64,000 nucleotides of DNA from Candidatus Eiseniibacteriota bacterium (GCA_963783375.1 CAWANH010000028.1:480001-544000); one strand, 5' to 3'. Positions 1,221 through 62,932 are shown, numbered from the stretch's first letter. Program-made: numbers and translations. Notes: generated by a model not told the origin, from the letters alone.

Positions 1221-2519
1221 CTAATACCGGTAGCCGAGGGTGAGCCCGGCGACCTGAACGCCGTTGGCGTAGGTCCCCTCGAATCCGTCGCGGTTGTCGC
1301 TCCCGGTGTTCCGATCGGGGATGATCAGATAGAGCCCGAAGATGTCGGCCCGCAGCCGGCCCCAATCCTTCCCCAGGCCGACGCTCAGCCCGGTGCGGTT
1401 GTTGTCCGGGAGGAGCGGGCTCACCACCGAGGCCGGCTGGGGAGTCTCGTCATAGTAGTAGCCGAGTCGAAGGTCGAGGTCCTCCCGGAGCGCGATCTCC
1501 GCTCCAAACCGGTAGAAGAAGACGTCGCTCCAGTTCTCGGTCAGGACCTGGTTCAGCGAGGTCTCCTCGAAACGCAGGGGTAGGCGGTCGAAGGACGACC
1601 ACTGGATCCACCCCAGATCCGCTTCCGCCGAGAACCGGGGCGAGGGGGTCACCCCCAGGGCCAGAACCAGCGAAGCTGGAAAGCCCAGATCGGTGGACGC
1701 CGGCTGGTCCTTGGGGAACAGATCGGCCAGGACCGGATCCAGTTCGGTGCCGGTCCCGGTGAAGGTGAAGTCGGCGTTGCCTTGGTAGGTGATCGACACC
1801 CGGCTTCGGTAGTTCATCCCCAGGGTGATCCCGGGGCGGAGGTCCGCCTGGAATCCCAGATTGACCCCGTAGTCCAGATCGTTGCTGGCGGTGAGCACCA
1901 CGGTCCCGGGATCGAGGACCAGGGGTTCGGTTCCCCGTGGGTTCGCCTCCCCGACGTGACGCCTGAGCTCCAGGCTGGAGTGGACGGCCATGACCCCCGC
2001 TCCCACGCGGAACCAGGAGGCGGGCGAGACCGCCACCGTCGGATTGAAGTAGAACGGGGTGATCGAAGCCTTGGTGGAAATGAACCGGCCCGGGAACTCG
2101 TCCGGGTTCTTCCATTCCGTGGTGAGGCCGAAGGGGTTGTATACCCCGAACCCCACCACGAAGTCGTCGCCCAGCCGCTCCGCCCAGTAGACGTGAAACG
2201 GAAAGAAGGCCTGGGTCGGAGACTTGGCGTGGACTCCGTACCCGGGGTAGGGGTTCATTCCCGCGAACTCCCGGGAGACCACGATCATGCTCGTTCCCCC
2301 CAGGATCTCCCCGTTCTCCACCCGGGCCAGTCCGGCGGGATTGAAAAAGATCCCGCTGGCGTCGGCCACCCGGGCGGTGTACGCGCCCCCCTGGCCCATC
2401 GCCCGCCCCGCCTGCTCGTAGAGGCTGAAGCCCGCGCCCTCCGCGACCGCCGGAACCGTGAGCCCCACCGCCATGACGAACGGCAGCCATCTCGTTCTCA
2501 AAGTGAACTCCTTTCCCAA
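1221..2519 (-). CDS. FadL/OmpP1/TodX-family outer-membrane long-chain fatty acid transporter
   Basis: Signal peptide, then AGFSLYEQ...GGAYTA..ADASGIFFNPAGL hatch motif; beta-strand pattern; C-terminal aromatic residue (LGYRY). Confidence 0.88.
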   Translation of the reverse strand: MGKEFTLRTRWLPFVMAVGLTVPAVAEGAGFSLYEQAGRAMGQGGAYTARVADASGIFFNPAGLARVENGEILGGTSMIVVSREFAGMNPYPGYGVHAKSPTQAFFPFHVYWAERLGDDFVVGFGVYNPFGLTTEWKNPDEFPGRFISTKASITPFYFNPTVAVSPASWFRVGAGVMAVHSSLELRRHVGEANPRGTEPLVLDPGTVVLTASNDLDYGVNLGFQADLRPGITLGMNYRSRVSITYQGNADFTFTGTGTELDPVLADLFPKDQPASTDLGFPASLVLALGVTPSPRFSAEADLGWIQWSSFDRLPLRFEETSLNQVLTENWSDVFFYRFGAEIALREDLDLRLGYYYDETPQPASVVSPLLPDNNRTGLSVGLGKDWGRLRADIFGLYLIIPDRNTGSDNRDGFEGTYANGVQVAGLTLGYRY

Positions 2520-2564
2520 GCCGGTCGACAGCGCAGGATCGGGTGATCGACCGTGAACCGCCGC

Positions 2565-4376
2565 CTATCTCTCCCGATTCACTTCGGAGTTTCCTCCGTA
2601 GAGCGCATCGATCTCATCCCGGAAGCGTTCCGAGATCTCCTTCCGGCGGACCTTCAGGGTGGGAGTCAGCTCCCCACCGGCCACGGATAGATCCCGGTCC
2701 AGGAGATGGAATCGCTTGATGGTCTCGTAGGAAGCCGCATCGCGTTGGTGACGGTCTATCCGTCGCCGGATGAGATTCACGACCTGCGGATCTCGCGTCA
2801 TGTCGGCGCGATCCACGACCTGGATCCCCTTGTAGCGAACGTATCGCTCCAGACGCTCGAAGTTGGGCACGATGATCGCGGTCAGATAGGGACGGCGGTC
2901 CCCGAGGATCACCGCCTCGGTGATGAACTTGTCCGTCTTGAGTTCGTTCTCGATCGGTTGGGGGGCGACGTTCTTCCCCCCCGCGGTCACGATCAGATCC
3001 TTCTTCCGGTCGGTGATGATCAGAAATCCGTCCTCGTCCAGGTGTCCGATGTCCCCGGTGTGGAGCCAGCCGTCGGCCAGGGTCTCCGCGGTGGCATCGG
3101 GCTGGTCGTAGTAGCCCAGCATGACGTTGGGACCGCGAGCCAGGATCTCCCCGTCCTCGGCGATTCGGATGTCCACCCCGGGAAGGGGCTTTCCCACCGT
3201 GCCGAATCGGAGGTCCTTGAAGGTGTTGACCGCCAGGACCGGCGAACTCTCGGTGAGGCCGTAGCCCTCCAGGATGGGGAGTCCCGCGGCGTGGAAGAAC
3301 TCGGCGATTTCCCCGGCCAGGGGGGCGCCGCCGGAGATGAAGAACCGCAGCCGCCCCCCCGTCCGCCGGCGCAGCTTGGAGAACACCAGGCGGTCGGCGA
3401 CGGCGAAACGGAGACCCAGCCAGGACCCGACCGGCGCGCCGGCCAGGAGACGCCGGGAGCGCTCCATGCCCACCGACCGAGCCCAGAAGAAGATTTGCTT
3501 CTTCATGAACCCGCTCCGGGTCGCGCTGTCCAGGATCCGCCCGTAGATCTTCTCGTAGAGCCGGGGCACGCTCACCATCACCGTGGGCTGCACCTCCATG
3601 AGGTTCTCCGATACGGTGTCGATGGACTCGGCGTAGGCGATGGTGGTCCGCGCCTGGTACATGCAATAGAGCCCGGCCATCCGCTCCAAAATGTGGCTCA
3701 AGGGAAGGAACGAAAGAGAGGTGTCGGTGTCCCGGAGGTCGAACACCCGGAGCCCGGCCGCCACATTGGACAGGATGTTCCGGTGGCTCAGCATCACCCC
3801 TTTGGGAGGGCCGGTGGTGCCGCTGGTATAGATCAGGGTGGCGAGGTCCTCGGGTTTCGCCTGCGCCGCGCGCCGGGCGATGAGCTCCGGCTCGGCCCGC
3901 CCGAGGCTCCGCCCCCGCTCCCGAAGATCCTCCAGGCTCAACGCCCCCTCCACTTCCCCGGCCCGGTCGAAGACCACCAGGAGGAGACCGGGATCGTCCC
4001 GGCGGAGCCTTTCCGTCTTGGCCGCCTGGTCGGGATCGGCGGCGAAGATCGCCCGCGCCCCCGAATTCTGAAGGATATAGCGCACCGAGTGCTCGGTGAG
4101 GCTCGGGTAGACGGGGACGGAGATCAGCCCGGCGGCCAGGATTCCCAGATCGGCCACCGGCCACTCGAGTCGCGTCTCGGAAAGAATACCGATTCGGTCG
4201 CCTGTCTTCAGACCGCAAGACACCAGGCCGAGGGCGACTTCACGCCCCATTCGCCCGAACTCCTCCGCCGGAACGTCCCGGTAGGCGCCTTCGGACTTGT
4301 GTCGAAAGGCGATACGGTCGGGTTGGGCCTCAATTCCCTGAAGATAGAGCTCGAACAGCGTCCGCGGTTCTGCCAA
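2565..4376 (-). CDS. Long-chain fatty acid-CoA ligase (AMP-binding, FadD/FAA1-like)
   Basis: IYTSGTTGPPKG, EGYGLTE, GWLHTGDIG, DRKKDLI, ELTPTLK motifs. Confidence 0.93.
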   Translation of the reverse strand: MAEPRTLFELYLQGIEAQPDRIAFRHKSEGAYRDVPAEEFGRMGREVALGLVSCGLKTGDRIGILSETRLEWPVADLGILAAGLISVPVYPSLTEHSVRYILQNSGARAIFAADPDQAAKTERLRRDDPGLLLVVFDRAGEVEGALSLEDLRERGRSLGRAEPELIARRAAQAKPEDLATLIYTSGTTGPPKGVMLSHRNILSNVAAGLRVFDLRDTDTSLSFLPLSHILERMAGLYCMYQARTTIAYAESIDTVSENLMEVQPTVMVSVPRLYEKIYGRILDSATRSGFMKKQIFFWARSVGMERSRRLLAGAPVGSWLGLRFAVADRLVFSKLRRRTGGRLRFFISGGAPLAGEIAEFFHAAGLPILEGYGLTESSPVLAVNTFKDLRFGTVGKPLPGVDIRIAEDGEILARGPNVMLGYYDQPDATAETLADGWLHTGDIGHLDEDGFLIITDRKKDLIVTAGGKNVAPQPIENELKTDKFITEAVILGDRRPYLTAIIVPNFERLERYVRYKGIQVVDRADMTRDPQVVNLIRRRIDRHQRDAASYETIKRFHLLDRDLSVAGGELTPTLKVRRKEISERFRDEIDALYGGNSEVNRER

Positions 4377-56336: not shown

Positions 56337-58619
56337 CTAGTCCTTCCCCTGCATCCGCAGGAGGTTCAGCGCGCTCCCCGCCTTCCACCACGCCACCTGC
56401 TCCATGTTCAGGGTGTGCTTGAGCTCCACCTCGTCGGTGGCGCCGTCCCGGTGGTGGATGATGGCGGTCAGGGTCATGCCGGGCGCAAGATCCTGGAGAC
56501 CGGTGATGGTGATCTCGTCGGTTTCCTGCACCTTCTCGTAATCCGCCGGGTCCACGAAGGTCAAGGGCAGGAGCCCTTGCTTCTTCAGGTTCGTCTCGTG
56601 GATGCGGGCGAAGGAGCGGGCGATGATGGCCGCCGCCCCCAGGAACCGCGGCGACATCGCCGCGTGCTCACGGCTCGAGCCCTCGCCGTAGTTGTCGTCC
56701 CCCACCACCACCCAGCGCTTCCCGGCCGCCTTGAGCGCCCGGGCCACTTCCGGCACCGGCTGGTCCGCCTTGCCGGTGAGGGGGTTCCGGGTCGTTCCCC
56801 GCCCCCCGGTGAAGGCGTTGATGGCCCCGGTGAACATGTTGTCGCTGATCTTGTCCAGATGACCGCGGTAGCGGAGCCAGGGGCCCGCCGGGGAAATGTG
56901 ATCGGTGGTCGTCTTGCCCTTGGTCTTGAGGAGAAGCGGCAGGCGGTGGAACGCCTGCTCCCCGTTGGGGCGGGTGAAGGGCTGTAGCCTCTGGAGCCGG
57001 TTGCTCTCGGGATCCACCGCGACCTCGACCGACTCCGGGTTCTCGACCGGGGCGACGTACCCCTCGCGCGCGAACACGAACCCCTGGGAGGGGATGTCCG
57101 GCGCGGGCTTGGGCGGCTCGAGCTTCCACTCCGTTCCGTCCGGTCCGGCGATCGGGTCGGTGAGGGGGTTGAAGGAGAGCCGTCCGGCCAGGCCATAGGC
57201 CATGACCACCTCGGGGCTGGCGATGAAGGCCAGGGTCTCGGGGTTGGCGTCGTTTCGTCCGGGGAAATTCCGGTTGAACGAGGTGATGATGGTGTTCTTT
57301 TCCCCTCGTTTCACCTCGTCCCGTTGCCACTGGCCGATGCAGGGTCCGCAGGCGTTGGCCAGCACCGTCGCCCCCACCGCCTCCAGCTTCTGCATCTGTC
57401 CGTCACGGCGAATGGTGGCGAAGACCTGCTCGCTCCCCGGGGTGACCATGAGCGGGGTGGCCATCTTGTTCCCGTGCTTCGCCGCCTGCTCGGCCACGTC
57501 GGCCGCGCGCCCGATGTCCTCGTACGAGGAGTTGGTGCAGGAGCCGATGAGGCTCACCGAGATCCGGTCGGGGTACCCCTCCCGCTTCACCGCCTCGGCC
57601 ATCTTCGACACCGGACGGGCAAGATCGGGGGTGTGCGGGCCCACCAGGTGCGGCTCGAGGGTGGACAGGTCCAGCTCGAGCAGCTGGTGGTAGAACTTCC
57701 TCGGGTTCTGGAGCACCTCCTTGTCGGGAACCAGGAGATCCTCGTACTCGCGGGCGAGGGCGGCCAGCTCGCCCCGTTGGGTGGCCTCGAGGTAGGTGTC
57801 CATCCGTTCGTCGTGGGCGAAGACCGAGGTGGTGGCGCCGAGTTCGGCCCCCATGTTGCAGATCGTCCCCTTGCCGGTCGCGCTGATCGAGGCCGCCCCG
57901 GGGCCGAAGTACTCCACGATGTGGTTGGTGCCCCCCTTCACCGTGAGCTGGCCGCAGACCCAGAGGATCACGTCCTTGGGCGCGGTCCAGCCGGACAGGG
58001 AGCCGGTGAGATGCACCCCGATCAGCTTGGGCTGGAGGACCTCCCAGGGAAAGCCGGCCATGACGTCCACCGCGTCGGCTCCGCCGACCCCCACCGCGCA
58101 CATGCCCAGGCCGCCGGCGTTGGGGGTGTGGGAATCCGTCCCGATCATGAGCCCGCCGGGGAACGCGTAGTTCTCCAGCACCACCTGGTGGATGATCCCC
58201 GCCCCGGGCTGCCAGAATCCGATCCCGTACTTGGAGCTCACCGAACGCAGGAAATCGTAGACCTCGCGGTTCTCGGTGTTGGCGACGTTCAGATCGGCGG
58301 TCGAGCCGGAATGAGCGCGGATCAGGTGGTCGCAGTGGACGGTGGAGGGAACCGCGGCCTCTTGCTTCCCCGCCATCATGAACTGGAGGAGGGCCATCTG
58401 GGCGGTGGCGTCCTGCATGGCCACCCGGTCGGGACGAAGGGCGAGATACGCCTTGCCGGCATCGAGGTCCTGCTCCCGCGGGTTGTCGAGATGGCCGAAC
58501 ACGATCTTCTCGGCCAGGGTCAGGGGACGCTCCAGGCGGTCGCGGATGAGCTCCAGGTTCTTCCGGGATCGTTCGTAGGAGCTTCGGACCATTTCCGGAG
58601 TGGTTTCGATTCGGGCCAT
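56337..58619 (-). CDS. Aconitate hydratase (mitochondrial-like type)
   Basis: [63 protein letters not shown]. Confidence 0.96.
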
Positions 58620-59008
58620 TTGATGGTTCTCCCTGCTAAGTTCAAAAAAGTCTATGGATTATGGCGATCCAGACCGAGGCCTCGCCGCCGCCGCCCCACC
58701 GCCACCGCTCCACGGCCGGCGCGCGACGCGGGGATCGAGCCGGGGGACAACCAAGAATACGGCATTCCGCCGCCGCTTGCACGATCCCGGGGCACTCTCC
58801 GGTTGCCTGGCGCCGGGGCATCCCGACTTGTTCGATCCGGGGCGAAATGATACAAATACGATCCGATGAGCTGAGCGCCCCCGGCGTGCTTCGGCCCGGA
58901 AACGCCGGGGCGCGCGTGGGAGCCTCGGTCAGACGGAACCGGCGGCCCGTCCAGGCGACGACCGTCCGGGACGAGAGCAAGTCCATCAGCCACCAAGGAG
59001 GGTCCCCG

Positions 59009-59173
59009 ATGGAGAACGAGAACCGGAACCCCGCCCCCCGGTCCGAAGACGCGGCCGCCCAGGAAGACGTCGAACTCTTCGCGTCCTACACGGTGGAAGA
59101 GATCAACGAGCGCCGGGAGCTTTTCACGCCCGGCGCGACGATCTGGTACAGCTCGAACCAGCCCATCAGCTAG
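59009..59173 (+). CDS. 54-aa putative RiPP precursor peptide
   Basis: AAGGAGG RBS 7 nt before ATG; MENENRNPAPRSEDAAAQEDVELFASYTVEEINERRELFTPGATIWYSSNQPIS; host-like codon usage; directly upstream of a peptidase and an acyltransferase. Confidence 0.75.
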   Translation: MENENRNPAPRSEDAAAQEDVELFASYTVEEINERRELFTPGATIWYSSNQPIS

Positions 59174-59255
59174 GCGCCCCTTGGAGGCGCGGATTCGACC
59201 GACTTCGGGTCGCCGGAGGGACGGATCCCGGGCGCGCCGGGAGGAGGACACGGTT

Positions 59256-60446
59256 GTGGCCGGCGTCCCCCGCCTCGGCGAAGGCATTGAAGTTCCCACG
59301 CCCCGCGGGAGCGAGGACGACGTCGTGGTCGCTCTCCCCTCGGGGCGTTTCCTTGCCCTATCCGCCGATGCCGCCCGCTTTCTCCGCCTGGTCGACGGCC
59401 GGCGGGATCTTGCGGAGCTGGCCCGGCTCCACGCCGCCGAGCGCGACCGTCCCTTCACCCCCGAGGCGGCGGAACGGTTGATCCGGACGACCTTCCTCCC
59501 CGCGGGCCTGATCCATTTCGGCCAACCTCCCCCCGACCCCGGGCCTCCCCGCTCCCGCCTCTGGCTCCGCCTCCCCCTCATTCCCGCGGGAGCGGCCTCG
59601 TCCCTGGGCCGCCGCCTCGCCCCTCTCTTCGGCCGCCGCAGCGTGGTCCCCGGCCTCGTCCTGGCCGCGGGGCTCCACCTCGCGTTCTACCTGTCCCGCC
59701 CCCGGCTGGGCCTGGAGGGCGCCGGGCTCGGGAGCGAGGGCTGGCTCCCCGCGACCGCGCTCTACCTCCTGGGGTCGATCTGGCACGAGCTGGGGCACGT
59801 CGCCGCCCTCCGACGGTCCGGGGAAGCGCCGGGGGGAATCGGCCTCGGCATGTACTACGCCGTCCCGGTCTTTCACTCCGACGTCTCCCGCGCCTGGCTC
59901 CTCTCGCGCCGCGACCGGGCGACGGTGGACCTGGGGGGGATGTACTTCCAGGCGCTCTTCGCCGGCGGACTCTGCGCGGTCTACCTCGTTCTGGGGGGAG
60001 CGGCCTGGTCCAAGGCGATCCTCTTCACCGACCTCGCCCTGCTCCTCAACCTGAACCCGTTCCTTCGCATGGACGGCTACTGGCTGGTGGCCGATCTCAC
60101 CGGTTCGCTCGACCTCCGGGACAGTTCGCTCCGGCGCCTTCGATCGCCGGCCCGAGGCGCCCCGGCCCGCGCCTTCCGCGGACTCGGGATCTACGCCGTG
60201 GCGAGCCTCGTCTATCTCCTGGCCCTCTCCGCGTGGATGGCGGTGGCCGTCCTTCCCCGCGCGGTGACCACCCTCGCCGGGGCCGGGAGGGGGGCGCCGC
60301 TTCCCGGCCTGCTCTTCGCCGTTCTGGTGGTGGCCGGGACCGGCGTTTTCCTCGTCCGCTCGGCCGGGCTCATCTACCGGTTCGCCGCCGGCCCGCGAGC
60401 GGGCTCCTCCGATCCCCTCCCCGAGGGGCGGGCCGCCGGGCGATGA
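59256..60446 (+). CDS. Intramembrane Zn metallopeptidase (M50/site-2-like) with N-terminal PqqD/RRE-like domain
   Basis: WHELGH (HExxH), FHSDVS, NLNPFLRMDGYW (NxxPxxxxDG), multiple TM helices; N-terminal GRFLALS...FLRLVDGRRDLAELA; GTG start after GGAGGAGG. Confidence 0.85.
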   Translation: MAGVPRLGEGIEVPTPRGSEDDVVVALPSGRFLALSADAARFLRLVDGRRDLAELARLHAAERDRPFTPEAAERLIRTTFLPAGLIHFGQPPPDPGPPRSRLWLRLPLIPAGAASSLGRRLAPLFGRRSVVPGLVLAAGLHLAFYLSRPRLGLEGAGLGSEGWLPATALYLLGSIWHELGHVAALRRSGEAPGGIGLGMYYAVPVFHSDVSRAWLLSRRDRATVDLGGMYFQALFAGGLCAVYLVLGGAAWSKAILFTDLALLLNLNPFLRMDGYWLVADLTGSLDLRDSSLRRLRSPARGAPARAFRGLGIYAVASLVYLLALSAWMAVAVLPRAVTTLAGAGRGAPLPGLLFAVLVVAGTGVFLVRSAGLIYRFAAGPRAGSSDPLPEGRAAGR

Positions 60447-61660
60447 TGCCCGGCCTCCACCGCTCACTCCGGGACCTGGGGATCCTGGGCCGGGCCCTGG
60501 CCGGGGTTCCGCGCCGCCGCCGGGCCCTGGGGGGATTCGCCCCCCTCCTCCCGGTGAGCTTCTCCACCGCCCTCAGCGAGACCCATTCCCCCCGCGAGCT
60601 TCGGGCGCTGGCCCGCCGGTATCCCCTGGAACTGACCTTGAACGATCTCCTGAACCGGGAGGTCTCCCGGGGCCGCCCCGCCCACCGGATCGAGAACCCG
60701 TCCGCGGTCCGCCCGGAAGGCGGCGCCGGGATCCTGGTCTGCGCCATGCACCTCGGTCCGTTCCACCAGGTCACCGCCGAGCTCCTCCGGATCCGCGACC
60801 GGGCCGCGGTCTTCGCCTCCCGCCACATCGCCGGGCAGCTCCAAAGCGCCTGGAGCGGCGGCGCCCGTGCCCACGGGAAGCATCTCGAGGTCCTGGTGAG
60901 CGACGAGCGGCGAAGCGTCCCCCGGGCCTTGCGAACGCTGGCCGCGGGCGGTTGCGTGGTCATCTACATGGACGCCGACAACCGGGTGCGGGGGCTCGAA
61001 GGCCGGAGCGGCGGCTCGGTGGACCTCCGGTTTCTCGGGCTACCCCTTCGGGTCAGCTCGGGACCGGCGCGGCTGGCCCGGGCGGCCCGGGCGGACACCG
61101 TGCTCGCGGCGAGCTGGCGGGAGCGGGGGTTCCGCACGGTGGTGCGGTTCTCGCATCCCCTGCCCCCCCTGACCGAGGCCTCGGAGGAGACGGTCACTAG
61201 GCGCGTGGGGGCCATGTACGCCTGGTTCGAACCCCTCCTGCGCGCCCATCCCGAACAGTGGGACGGATGGCTTCCCCAGGTTCTCTACTGGTCGGAGACC
61301 GGGAAGCCGCCTTCGGCCGGCCGGACCCGGTTCGAGGCGGAGCGGCGGCGTCTGGAGAAACTGGTCCGCTCGGGGGAAAAGCGCGCACGCCTGTCCGCCG
61401 AGCCGGCCCACGTGGGATGGCTCTCGCGGGGGGAGGAGCGCTTGTTGATCCACGGGCCGCGGCGGCTGATTCTCAAGGGGGACCCGCTGGCGTGCGATCT
61501 GCTGGACGCCGCGCTCCGCCGGCGGAAGGTCTCCACGCTCCGCCGTTCCTTCCACGAGGAGCCGGAGCGATTGGCCGAGACCCTGGCCCGGCTCGAGCTT
61601 GCCGGGCTCCTCGCGGTCGAGACCGGGGCCCCGCGCCCGGCGGAGCCGGCAACACCCTGA
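60443..61660 (+). CDS. LpxL/LPLAT-like acyltransferase with C-terminal winged-helix (RRE-like) domain
   Basis: ATGA overlap; ILVCAMHLGPF, ALRTLAAGGCVVIYMD, LRFLG..LRV..GPARLA, LRAHPEQWDGW; C-terminal LLIHG..RLILKGD..CDLLD...LAETLARLELAGLL. Confidence 0.78.
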   Translation: MMPGLHRSLRDLGILGRALAGVPRRRRALGGFAPLLPVSFSTALSETHSPRELRALARRYPLELTLNDLLNREVSRGRPAHRIENPSAVRPEGGAGILVCAMHLGPFHQVTAELLRIRDRAAVFASRHIAGQLQSAWSGGARAHGKHLEVLVSDERRSVPRALRTLAAGGCVVIYMDADNRVRGLEGRSGGSVDLRFLGLPLRVSSGPARLARAARADTVLAASWRERGFRTVVRFSHPLPPLTEASEETVTRRVGAMYAWFEPLLRAHPEQWDGWLPQVLYWSETGKPPSAGRTRFEAERRRLEKLVRSGEKRARLSAEPAHVGWLSRGEERLLIHGPRRLILKGDPLACDLLDAALRRRKVSTLRRSFHEEPERLAETLARLELAGLLAVETGAPRPAEPATP

Positions 61661-61668
61661 CACAGCGC

Positions 61669-61699
61669 CGCCCCGAGGGGTTTCGAACCCCCCGGGGCG
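61669..61699. terminator. Hairpin between convergent genes
   Basis: CGCCCCGAGGGGTT-TCG-AACCCCCCGGGGCG just after the acyltransferase stop. Confidence 0.55.
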
Positions 61700-61730
61700 C
61701 GCGGTGAGGGCACCGTGTTACCCCGATCGA

Positions 61731-62426
61731 TCAACGATACAGCGACTTCACCCGCCCCCAGCTCACCGCCTCGACCGGCACCACCGGGATACAGCCGGGG
61801 ACGGGGAGACCCCCGCCGTCGGTGAGAAAGACCACGTCGCGATGCGAACTCGATCCGAACCCAAGGTCCCCGTCCAGCTTCCGCCCCCCCTTGACCACCC
61901 ACTCCCCGTCCTGGGACCCGCCCAGGGCCAGGAACCGGATCACCAGAACCGGATCGTCGGGGTCGGCCGGGTAGGAGATCCCGTCCCCGTCGGGGACCAG
62001 GGCCCCGCTACAGAGGGTGATCTTGAGCCCGTTCACCCGGCAGCCGGAGCCGAGGCCGGGCTCGGCCATGCCCTGCGGGTCATCGGCCAGTTCCAGCTCG
62101 CAGGCCGCGCCGGGCGCTCCCGAAACCAGGAGACCGGCTAGCCCCCCGATCACCAGATCGGCGGCGCCCTGGCCGTCGCAGGCGAACTGGATGCTCAGGT
62201 GGCTCGGATCCCGGTAGGTGATTTGTCCCTGATCGACCCTGTAGATCTTGTAGGTATAGGCGGCGACACCCTGCGTGCCGGGACCCTGAACGTCGGCCTG
62301 GATCACGAAGTCGAACCCCAGGTCGTGGCCCTCCTGGACCGAATCCCAGCAGGTATCCCCGGCCGCCGCCCCGGCCAATACAAGCACGCACAATACGGGG
62401 AGTGTTCCTCCCAGGATGCCTCTCAT
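61731..62426 (-). CDS. Secreted Cys-containing hypothetical protein with SWGxVKxLY tail
   Basis: Signal peptide MRGILGGTLPVLCVLVLAGAAAG; ends VVPVEAVSWGRVKSLYR. Confidence 0.8.
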   Translation of the reverse strand: MRGILGGTLPVLCVLVLAGAAAGDTCWDSVQEGHDLGFDFVIQADVQGPGTQGVAAYTYKIYRVDQGQITYRDPSHLSIQFACDGQGAADLVIGGLAGLLVSGAPGAACELELADDPQGMAEPGLGSGCRVNGLKITLCSGALVPDGDGISYPADPDDPVLVIRFLALGGSQDGEWVVKGGRKLDGDLGFGSSSHRDVVFLTDGGGLPVPGCIPVVPVEAVSWGRVKSLYR

Positions 62427-62932
62427 CTTCGGTGCTATCCCTTCGTTGCGTCGGCAATCACACCCCGCCCGCGCCCACACCCCCCGCGCCTACGGGTTGT
62501 CATCTGCACTTGACACGTCGGACAAAAAGAAAGGAGCCACCCTCCAACGCCGGTACGACGATGGAGGCGCCCCTAGGTCTTGTCCTGCAATTCCAACCGG
62601 AGCCGTTGTATTGCGGCTACCGGCCCGTGTCCCCGTGGAACAAGCATAGCAAACCGCAAGACCCGATTCAACGATTCTCGGGGTTCTTGCCCGCCTGGAG
62701 CCGATTTCAAGGTGATGCGCAATTCCATGTTCCGATCCGATATCTACGTAGACCTGATTTTATGTGATACAGGCGAAGTCCCCCGAAGCCGGGTGAGATC
62801 ACCCTTCGGTCGTCATGATGGACGCCCGGACCCGGCTTCGGTTACAGGACCGTCCCGGCAATTTGAAGAGGGGAAGCGGGGTGGGTTAAATTCCCCAGCC
62901 GGGCCGGGGACAGACCGGATCAATCGATCCGG

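Follow-up and report, generated by a model that had tools for sequence, protein, structure and literature searches.

A three-gene unit of a Candidatus Eiseniibacteriota bacterium encodes a conserved-leader peptide, a daptide-type protease and an LpxM/PatA-fold acyltransferase: a candidate cassette for peptide lipidation

This work concerns a three-gene unit on the plus strand of a 64,000-nucleotide stretch of Candidatus Eiseniibacteriota bacterium (GCA_963783375.1 CAWANH010000028.1:480001-544000); the whole stretch is called here the window, and all coordinates are positions in it. An earlier note, made from the DNA sequence, had described at this place a self-contained unit, divergent from aconitase and closed by a hairpin, with a 54-aa open reading frame (ORF) behind a strong ribosome-binding site, an HExxH/NxxPxxxxDG membrane peptidase and an acyltransferase overlapping it by ATGA, and all of these were located:

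58997..59001, plus strand: Shine-Dalgarno sequence GGAGG, 7 nt 5' of the peptide ATG (read from the sequence)
59009..59173, plus strand: precursor peptide gene, 54 aa (ORF, family profile, codon conservation)
59181..60446, plus strand: intramembrane HExxH metalloprotease with N-terminal RRE-like domain, predicted leader peptidase (NCBIfam and Pfam matches, motifs)
59322..59453, plus strand: RRE-like (PqqD-like) stretch of the protease, residues 48-91 (Pfam PF05402)
59784..59798, plus strand: HELGH, zinc-binding motif of the protease (sequence, homolog alignment)
60048..60077, plus strand: NLNPFLRMDG, second site-2-protease motif, NxxPxxxxDG (sequence, homolog alignment)
60443..61660, plus strand: acyltransferase of LpxL/LpxM/PatA fold with C-terminal RRE-like domain, 405 aa (AlphaFold2 model, Foldseek, profiles)
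60749..60751, plus strand: His103 of the acyltransferase, predicted catalytic base (homolog and LpxM alignments)
60971..60973, plus strand: Asp177 of the acyltransferase, predicted partner of His103 (homolog and LpxM alignments)
61376..61636, plus strand: C-terminal RRE-like domain of the acyltransferase, residues 312-398 (domain model, Foldseek)
61655..61715, plus strand: G+C-rich hairpin closing the three-gene unit (folding energy against shuffles)

The protease ORF opens eight bases 3' of the stop codon of the peptide gene, and its start is ambiguous, with TTG 59181 (the longest ORF) and GTG 59256 lying in frame. The GTG is preceded by GGAGGAGG at a distance of 8 nt, the alignment with homologs begins only near residue 28, and on these sequence grounds GTG 59256 is the more likely start. 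The acyltransferase ATG (60443) sits within the ATGA that contains the protease stop codon (60444-60446), an overlap by which the acyltransferase is predicted to be translationally coupled to the protease. We hypothesize that the three genes constitute a cassette for a peptide that is ribosomally made and modified after translation (RiPP), in which the leader would dock on domains resembling the RiPP recognition element (RRE), the enzyme of LpxM/PatA fold would O-acylate the tail and the daptide-type protease would remove the leader, and we regard this reading as reasonably probable.

The encoded peptide has an acidic leader with VELF..YTVEEINERRE, followed by an uncharged tail of 16-17 residues, and ends ...YTVEEINERRELFTPGATIWYSSNQPIS. 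Its family was defined from 21 loci, the window and 20 others that were retrieved, with a profile iterated over all stop-to-stop ORFs. Eighteen of these loci hold 35 short peptide ORFs. Each locus has one to four of them, arranged in tandem immediately upstream of the enzyme genes and on their strand; they begin with ATG (32) or GTG (3) and are nearly all preceded by a GGAGG-type site. The leader block VELFxAYxVEEIxERRE is conserved in the family, often with L/M-F next, and the tails, of 9-27 residues, are hypervariable, without any conserved position in the 35-ORF alignment. In composition the tails are 22% Ser, 13% Gly and 10% Tyr; Ser is found in 34 of the 35 and Ser, Thr or Tyr in every one, Cys being absent from 21 and Lys from 19. 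As for the three loci without a profile match, L025 and L034 are cut by contig ends and L040 has a divergent copy recognized by eye. Precursor genes with a conserved leader and a variable core, adjoining maturation genes, are thus found here as in RiPP clusters, and the earlier note was right to expect a short upstream ORF of this kind beside homologous enzyme pairs. It had also placed the predicted leader cut after ERRE or ERREL; ERRE is only the boundary of conservation, and the L/M-F after it is itself conserved in many copies.

When compared with its closest relative, whose acyltransferase is 86% identical, the window peptide shows 11 synonymous and 8 non-synonymous codon differences, and within codons 19-44 all 8 differences are synonymous; judged from these changes, the reading frame is under purifying selection. 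The 35-sequence profile had one match in the six frames of the window genome at E <= 1, namely the window ORF (E 1.1e-14). Searched in six frames against 206 genomes of the phylum, it matched 39 places in 20 genomes, 19 of which fall among the 21 that carry a full-length acyltransferase. The exception, G109, has its matches at a contig start, and G010 and G086 are acyltransferase-positive with the peptide profile unmatched. The matches in G109 and on a second G078 contig are new, lying outside the loci used for the profile. The window peptide matched no NCBIfam model at E <= 1. A chance ORF or an upstream regulatory ORF was considered for this frame and ruled out by the conservation, the synonymous changes, the tandem copies and the specificity of the profile.

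With the AlphaFold2 model of the acyltransferase (predicted local distance difference test, pLDDT, 91.7; predicted template-modelling score, pTM, 0.88), Foldseek gave LpxM first (5knk, E 1.6e-12, template-modelling score by target 0.59-0.60), then PatA (5oce, E 3.2e-10 and weaker, score by target 0.64-0.71), and then GPAT and PlsC. In its predicted structure the enzyme therefore has the LpxM/PatA (LPLAT) fold, as the description of it as an LpxL-like acyltransferase had implied. At the sequence level, it matched a model of phosphatidylinositol mannoside (PIM) acyltransferases at E 2.9e-5, and PF03279 at E 0.068, with 12.8 bits against a gathering threshold of 22.3; 18 of 22 stand-alone relatives match PF03279 at E <= 0.01, and a PF03279 search of the window's own genome at that E value missed the window enzyme. 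A profile of the 22 relatives found Acinetobacter LpxM (E 1.2e-5) and PatA (E 6e-4) in the PDB. Two canonical PF03279 genes were found elsewhere in the genome (contig C29, 206991-207836 and 863275-864078, 162 and 159 bits), and hhalign aligned the acyltransferase with the canonical paralog at 98.4% probability and E 5e-15; on sequence, the window enzyme is a third, divergent paralog. Like LpxL, LpxM and PatA, it has the fold, the conserved His and the second-motif Asp; unlike them, it carries at its C-terminus an additional RRE-like domain of some 90 residues, shows no transmembrane segment in a simple hydropathy scan, does not keep the acid of the HX4(D/E) motif, stays below the Pfam cut-off, and has genes for precursor peptides and a leader protease as its partners instead of lipid A or PIM genes.

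This kinship raises the question of whether the enzyme acts on a lipid (lipid A, a phospholipid or a glycolipid variant), the peptide serving in regulation, as a chaperone-like partner or as a signal that is matured separately and has no more than the operon in common with the enzyme. Lipid and glycolipid acyltransferases share the fold and are the closest relatives with solved structures, the model has long basic, amphipathic N-terminal helices as in membrane-associated relatives, and phospholipase D (PLD)-like genes lie beside the cluster in seven loci. Nevertheless, we consider a lipid substrate improbable: the enzyme occurs only alongside peptide genes, carries a domain of the leader-binding type and is fused in several lineages to a RiPP-type leader protease, while two canonical lipid A acyltransferase paralogs are present elsewhere in the genome. 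Its distribution is also patchy within the genus, where G050 alone of three other genomes has a match and G048 and G049 (98% and 93% complete) have none. The canonical paralogs elsewhere and the co-occurrence with peptide genes argue against lipid A or PIM as the acceptor. As a separate candidate, a housekeeping lipid A enzyme was rejected in view of the two canonical paralogs and the patchy distribution.

The residues expected for catalysis are largely conserved. His103 is kept in 20 of 22 homologs and aligns with the His of PHFGTWE in LpxM and of HYGNWE in the canonical paralog, i.e. the His of the HX4(D/E) motif, and Asp177, kept in 22 of 22, aligns with the Asp of ILPDH in LpxM and of ADQD in the canonical paralog, which is the second motif; other catalytic-domain residues hardly vary either. 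In LpxM, E127 is a catalytic residue according to the title of PDB entry 5knk. In PatA, the accessible part of the published description makes His126 the general base on a mannose hydroxyl, assisted by Glu200 from another motif (PMC8519569), and by analogy we infer that Asp177 may be the counterpart of Glu200. If catalysis were lost, the acyltransferase-fold protein might be a non-catalytic leader-binding scaffold for the protease, and the peptide an unmodified exported signal or a bacteriocin-like peptide. This would agree with the missing HX4(D/E) acid and with the absence of the catalytic His from two of the 22 relatives, P0029 and P0033, which carry Thr or Arg there. We find it very improbable, however, since His103, Asp177 and the other catalytic-domain residues are so widely kept, the loci with a peptide and an acyltransferase and no protease would be functionless, and a related lineage recruits a fatty acyl-AMP ligase, as described below. 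P0029 and P0033 themselves retain Asp177 and the C-terminal domain despite the replaced His.

Residues ~312-398 of the acyltransferase fold in the models as four strands, three helices and one strand, with a pLDDT of 92.8 when this domain is folded alone. Among the best Foldseek matches of the domain were TbiB1 with its leader peptide (5v1v, E 2.8e-3, probability 1.00), TbtB, CteB, TruD, lasso B1, TigE, LynD, ThcOx, McbBCD, MibB and MccB; all of these are RRE-bearing RiPP enzymes, and the classes represented by the best-matching leader-binding domains include lasso peptides, thiopeptides, sactipeptides and cyanobactins. The nearest named Atlas clusters, MftB and PqqD, are a lead only. With hhalign, the domain aligned with the N-terminus of the protease at 45% (P 2.2e-4), a sequence similarity that is suggestive only. 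The earlier note had put an RRE on each enzyme. For the acyltransferase, the predicted structure supports this, the best Foldseek matches being the RRE domains of RiPP enzymes; for the peptidase, there are a PqqD match at E 0.02 and a full-length match to the daptide RRE-protease model, both below the cut-offs. An RRE domain on a maturation enzyme, another mark of RiPP clusters, is therefore present as far as the predicted structure and the weak PqqD match can indicate.

The protease matched the NCBIfam model daptide_HExxH (NF041824) over residues 30-392 with E 3.3e-32 and 112 bits, against a cut-off of 300, and the YydH/LiaK model (NF058609) over residues 195-303 only, with E 4.5e-12 and 46.2 bits, against a cut-off of 225, which sets it apart from the YydH/LiaK epipeptide proteases. 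Its residues 48-91 matched Pfam PqqD (PF05402) at E 0.02, with 15.7 bits against a cut-off of 23.4, and this stretch aligns with the N-termini of 11 homologs. In the 12 aligned homologs HExxH is kept without exception and NxxPxxxxDG is full in 11, with N in 11 and P and DG in all 12, and a hydropathy scan gave about five hydrophobic segments. On these matches, the protease is related to the daptide leader peptidase without being its equivalog; the daptide enzyme is described in the accessible part of the source as an RRE fused to a site-2 protease that removes the leader (10.1101/2023.03.08.531785). According to the same partial source, daptides resemble the system described here in the N-terminal RRE of their intramembrane HExxH protease (MpaP/DapP) and in having several similar short precursor genes per cluster, and the window protease matches the daptide model over nearly its whole length. 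The differences are that it fails the equivalog test; that the leader is VELF..VEEI.ERRE here and ELExMEAP in daptides; that the tails are rich in Ser, Gly and Tyr, the window peptide ending in Ser, where those of daptides are described as aliphatic with an invariant terminal Thr; and that the unit is without genes of the DapB/DapC type for oxidative decarboxylation and without aminotransferase and methyltransferase genes.

The acyltransferase family is rare. A search of 1.84 billion representative proteins gave 233 matches at E <= 1e-3, of which 57 reach E <= 1e-10 and 30 reach E <= 1e-30; another search for protein homologs returned four proteins, and a scan of genome contigs a single relative, 86% identical. 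Among the 206 genomes of the phylum, 44 have a match at E <= 1e-3; in 21 of them, the window's own genome included, it is strong (E <= 4e-15) and mostly near full length, and in the other 23 it is weak and confined to the catalytic core. The unpublished genome G072 underlies none of the statements made here. Separate genes for peptide, protease and acyltransferase are found in six of the 21 loci (the window, L022, L023, L026, L032 and L039). In L027, L029, L035, L036 and L037, one or more peptide genes are followed by protease and acyltransferase in one frame, as confirmed by a frame check; L024 and L030 have equally long frames with no protease match in tblastn. Six database proteins of 686-836 aa contain both the protease and the acyltransferase halves, and in L045 a single 727-aa metagenome ORF matches both profiles. 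In the remaining arrangement, seen in six of the 21 loci (L028, L031, L033, L038, L040 and L041), peptide and acyltransferase genes occur without an adjacent protease gene. Because of these six, the protease is not obligatory in cis, and what constantly accompanies the peptide is the acyltransferase and not the two enzymes together; the proposed link of the peptide with an enzyme pair thus holds generally for the acyltransferase and fails for the protease at those loci.

Proteases were sought in five genomes whose locus lacks one. G102 and G103 encode a homolog on a different contig (E 5.6e-69 and 1.2e-55), where it has no peptide gene for a neighbour, and in the remaining three genomes (65%, 83% and 56% complete) no match was obtained with this query. 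A gene for a CPBP/Rce1-like (CAAX) protease stands beside the cluster in L026, L029, L030, L032 and L036, and also in L042 and L043; in G102 and G103 such a gene adjoins the unlinked RRE-protease, away from peptide and acyltransferase, and the window has none. A PLD-like gene (PLDc_2, best E 4.8e-39) adjoins the peptide or acyltransferase genes on the same strand in L029, L030, L033, L035, L036, L037 and L045. Most of these loci have it upstream, L033 has it downstream, and the window is without one. It could be a further lipid-handling partner or mere conserved synteny. In P0026 (854 aa) and P0044 (829 aa), a tandem duplication has given two modules of acyltransferase plus RRE-like domain per protein.

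More distant relatives came from a metagenome scan seeded with an alignment of five more distant homologs, which returned 40 loci. Two of these (L044 and L045) hold full-length members and the other 38 match the catalytic core; a protease homolog lies beside the acyltransferase homolog in 12 of the 40. When short ORFs near the acyltransferase homologs were clustered, four groups of candidate peptides emerged: the first, in 11 loci, has leaders such as ..LSIEELEAKFK.. or ..LNIQELESRFEM..; the second, in 7 loci, combines ..LLEEFSITELEQRLEFEAW.. with Cys/Thr-rich cores; the third consists of MKKQF.. peptides and occurs in 4 loci; and in 3 loci (L050, L051 and L056) a ..VVRCNNRCNG.. ORF lies about 1.2 kb upstream of the acyltransferase homolog. 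An [ST]-[IV]-x-E-[IL]-E-x-R core is common to the window leader and the first and second groups. Four distant-lineage peptides gave no NCBIfam match at E <= 0.1, save one weak off-target match for the L067 peptide. The C-terminal tails of the distant acyltransferases, compared with the window RRE-like domain, gave P 0.035, which is not significant. L044, with 27% G+C, has its protease homolog split into ORFs 2253-2879 and 2981-3253 (span 2253-3253), the result of either a frameshift or a fault in the assembly; its acyltransferase has no peptide ORF immediately upstream and adjoins an outer-membrane-barrel-like gene.

The seven loci of the second group (L068, L074, L077, L079, L080, L081 and L082) form a single lineage, 70-88% identical, in which the gene order is radical SAM/SPASM maturase (TIGR04463, E 3e-60), acyltransferase homolog, peptide, RRE-protease (daptide_HExxH, E 1.1e-27) and fatty acyl-AMP ligase (PRK05850, E 1.1e-128; Pfam AMP-binding, 2.6e-68). 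Its peptide has a leader related to that of the window (..EEFSITELEQRLEF..), is Cys/Thr-rich and, in most copies, has a poly-Gly run. The ligase is present in six of the seven loci, the seventh stopping at the protease. By gene neighbourhood, this lineage links the acyltransferase type to fatty acid activation.

Fatty-acylated RiPPs are the known products closest to what is predicted here. In the accessible part of a 2026 paper, selidamides, lipolanthines, goadvionins, lipoavitides and aphotorhaptins are made with N-acyltransferases of the GNAT superfamily, which act on Lys/Orn side chains or on the N-terminus, and neither 'lipid A' nor 'O-acyl' appears there as a term (PMC13647313). They resemble the present system in that a gene-encoded peptide, here predicted to be acylated, comes with a dedicated acyltransferase and, in the related lineage, with a fatty acid-activating enzyme alongside. 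They differ in that the enzyme here has the LpxM/PatA (LPLAT) fold with its own RRE-like domain and the acceptor is likely a hydroxyl; a Pfam scan found no GNAT among the three genes of the unit. In a full-text collection with few of the subscription journals, no RiPP pathway with an acyltransferase of the PF03279/LPLAT type was found.

In the proposed mechanism, the conserved leader of the precursor would dock on the RRE-like domains of both enzymes, and His103 with Asp177 would transfer an acyl chain to the peptide. The donor would be a housekeeping acyl-ACP (acyl carrier protein) or acyl-CoA, because the unit encodes no donor genes, and the acceptor would be the hydroxyl of a Ser, Thr or Tyr in the variable tail. 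LpxL and LpxM acylate hydroxyl groups, which is one reason for choosing this acceptor. Others are that a hydroxyl is the sole side-chain nucleophile present in all 35 tails and that PatA, in the accessible part of its description, acylates a hydroxyl (PMC8519569). Acylation is expected with the leader still attached, because the acyltransferase has an RRE-like domain of its own, and the protease would then cleave close to where the ERRE(L/M)F block ends, to release a product that may be a signal, an antimicrobial or a membrane-bound lipopeptide.

A RiPP-type cassette could also use other acyl chemistry: the N-terminus exposed by leader cleavage might be N-acylated, as the protease-acyltransferase fusions might suggest, the acyl group might be short or unusual, or it might come by transacylation from a membrane phospholipid in place of acyl-ACP or acyl-CoA. 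No tail residue is conserved, while every product has an alpha-amine; natural fusions join the acyltransferase to the protease; donor-supplying genes are absent from the window unit; and the catalytic Glu of LpxM is absent, so that the mechanism may differ. Furthermore, lipolanthines, goadvionins, lipoavitides and aphotorhaptins are described, in the accessible part of the source, as N-terminally acylated after leader removal (PMC13647313). Other chemistry of this kind is unlikely in our judgement, yet deserves serious consideration. An RRE-like domain on the acyltransferase itself makes most sense with the leader attached, and six of the 21 loci pair the peptide with the acyltransferase and no adjacent protease. 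The nearest solved relatives, moreover, are enzymes that acylate hydroxyls.

Several points weigh against leader-guided O-acylation as the function of the cassette. Modification of the peptide, leader binding and enzyme activity are all predictions from sequence and models, and the acceptor could equally be the new N-terminus after cleavage, because no residue of the tail is conserved. The RRE-like assignment of the acyltransferase C-terminus depends on predicted structures: no Foldseek match of this domain reaches E <= 1e-3, winged-helix domains of JmjC hydroxylases are among the matches, Pfam has no match to it, and a PDB profile search gave weak MarR/Rrf2 winged-helix matches at E ~0.1. Both enzymes score below the cut-offs of the named models (12.8 against 22.3 bits on PF03279 for the acyltransferase; 112 against 300 on NF041824 and 15.7 against 23.4 on PqqD for the protease). 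The acid of HX4(D/E) is not kept, its place being taken by His108 in the window enzyme and by H, Y or F in relatives, and two of the 22 relatives have also lost the His. The in-phylum loci are related and were used in building the peptide profile, so that the counts of peptide-bearing loci and genomes overstate independence. The ligase link derives from a single lineage that is distant and has an acyltransferase matching the catalytic core only, and genes for ACP, acyl-AMP ligase and a transporter are all absent from the three-gene unit in the window.

The surroundings of the unit set it off from its neighbours. It is divergent from aconitase, encoded upstream on the minus strand (56337-58619, Pfam 4.4e-137), and a UbiD-family gene is also found upstream on the opposite strand. 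Downstream, on the opposite strand, are a gene for a 249-aa protein without a Pfam match and an AIRS-family (ThiL-like) gene. These flanking genes look unrelated to the three genes, and the unit is therefore a self-contained three-gene block. The hairpin at 61655-61715 that closes it has a folding energy of -40.4 kcal/mol (z = -4.32), and none of 200 shuffles folded equally well; it is without a T tail and absent from the listing of a simple terminator scan. The 249-aa protein (61731-62480, minus strand) has a hydrophobic N-terminal stretch and the C-terminus VSWGRVKSLYR, and its gene converges on this hairpin.

Taken as a biosynthetic system, the unit obeys the logic of RiPPs, its class-defining enzyme and its precursor family both being new, and the hypervariable, multi-copy tails suggest a diversifying product, e.g. 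a signal or an antimicrobial. We propose, more tentatively and with rather more doubt than conviction, that it belongs to a widespread undescribed RiPP class, in which an LPLAT-fold acyltransferase with an acquired leader-binding domain joins fatty acids by ester bonds to the Ser, Thr or Tyr of hypervariable ribosomal peptides, and of which related branches in other phyla couple the enzyme with radical SAM maturases and fatty acyl-AMP ligases. If this is true, RiPPs with O-linked lipids would be seen here for the first time, as would peptide substrates of the lipid A/PIM-type enzyme family. If an LpxM/PatA-type enzyme with a leader-docking domain of its own does lipidate peptides, RiPP chemistry would gain a new family of enzymes and, probably, a new type of linkage in the form of a hydroxyl ester, and lipid acyltransferases of primary metabolism would have been recruited to peptide substrates. 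The small size of the cassette allows a direct co-expression test and, on the same condition, its three genes would make a compact leader-guided lipidation tool for the engineering of gene-encoded lipopeptides.

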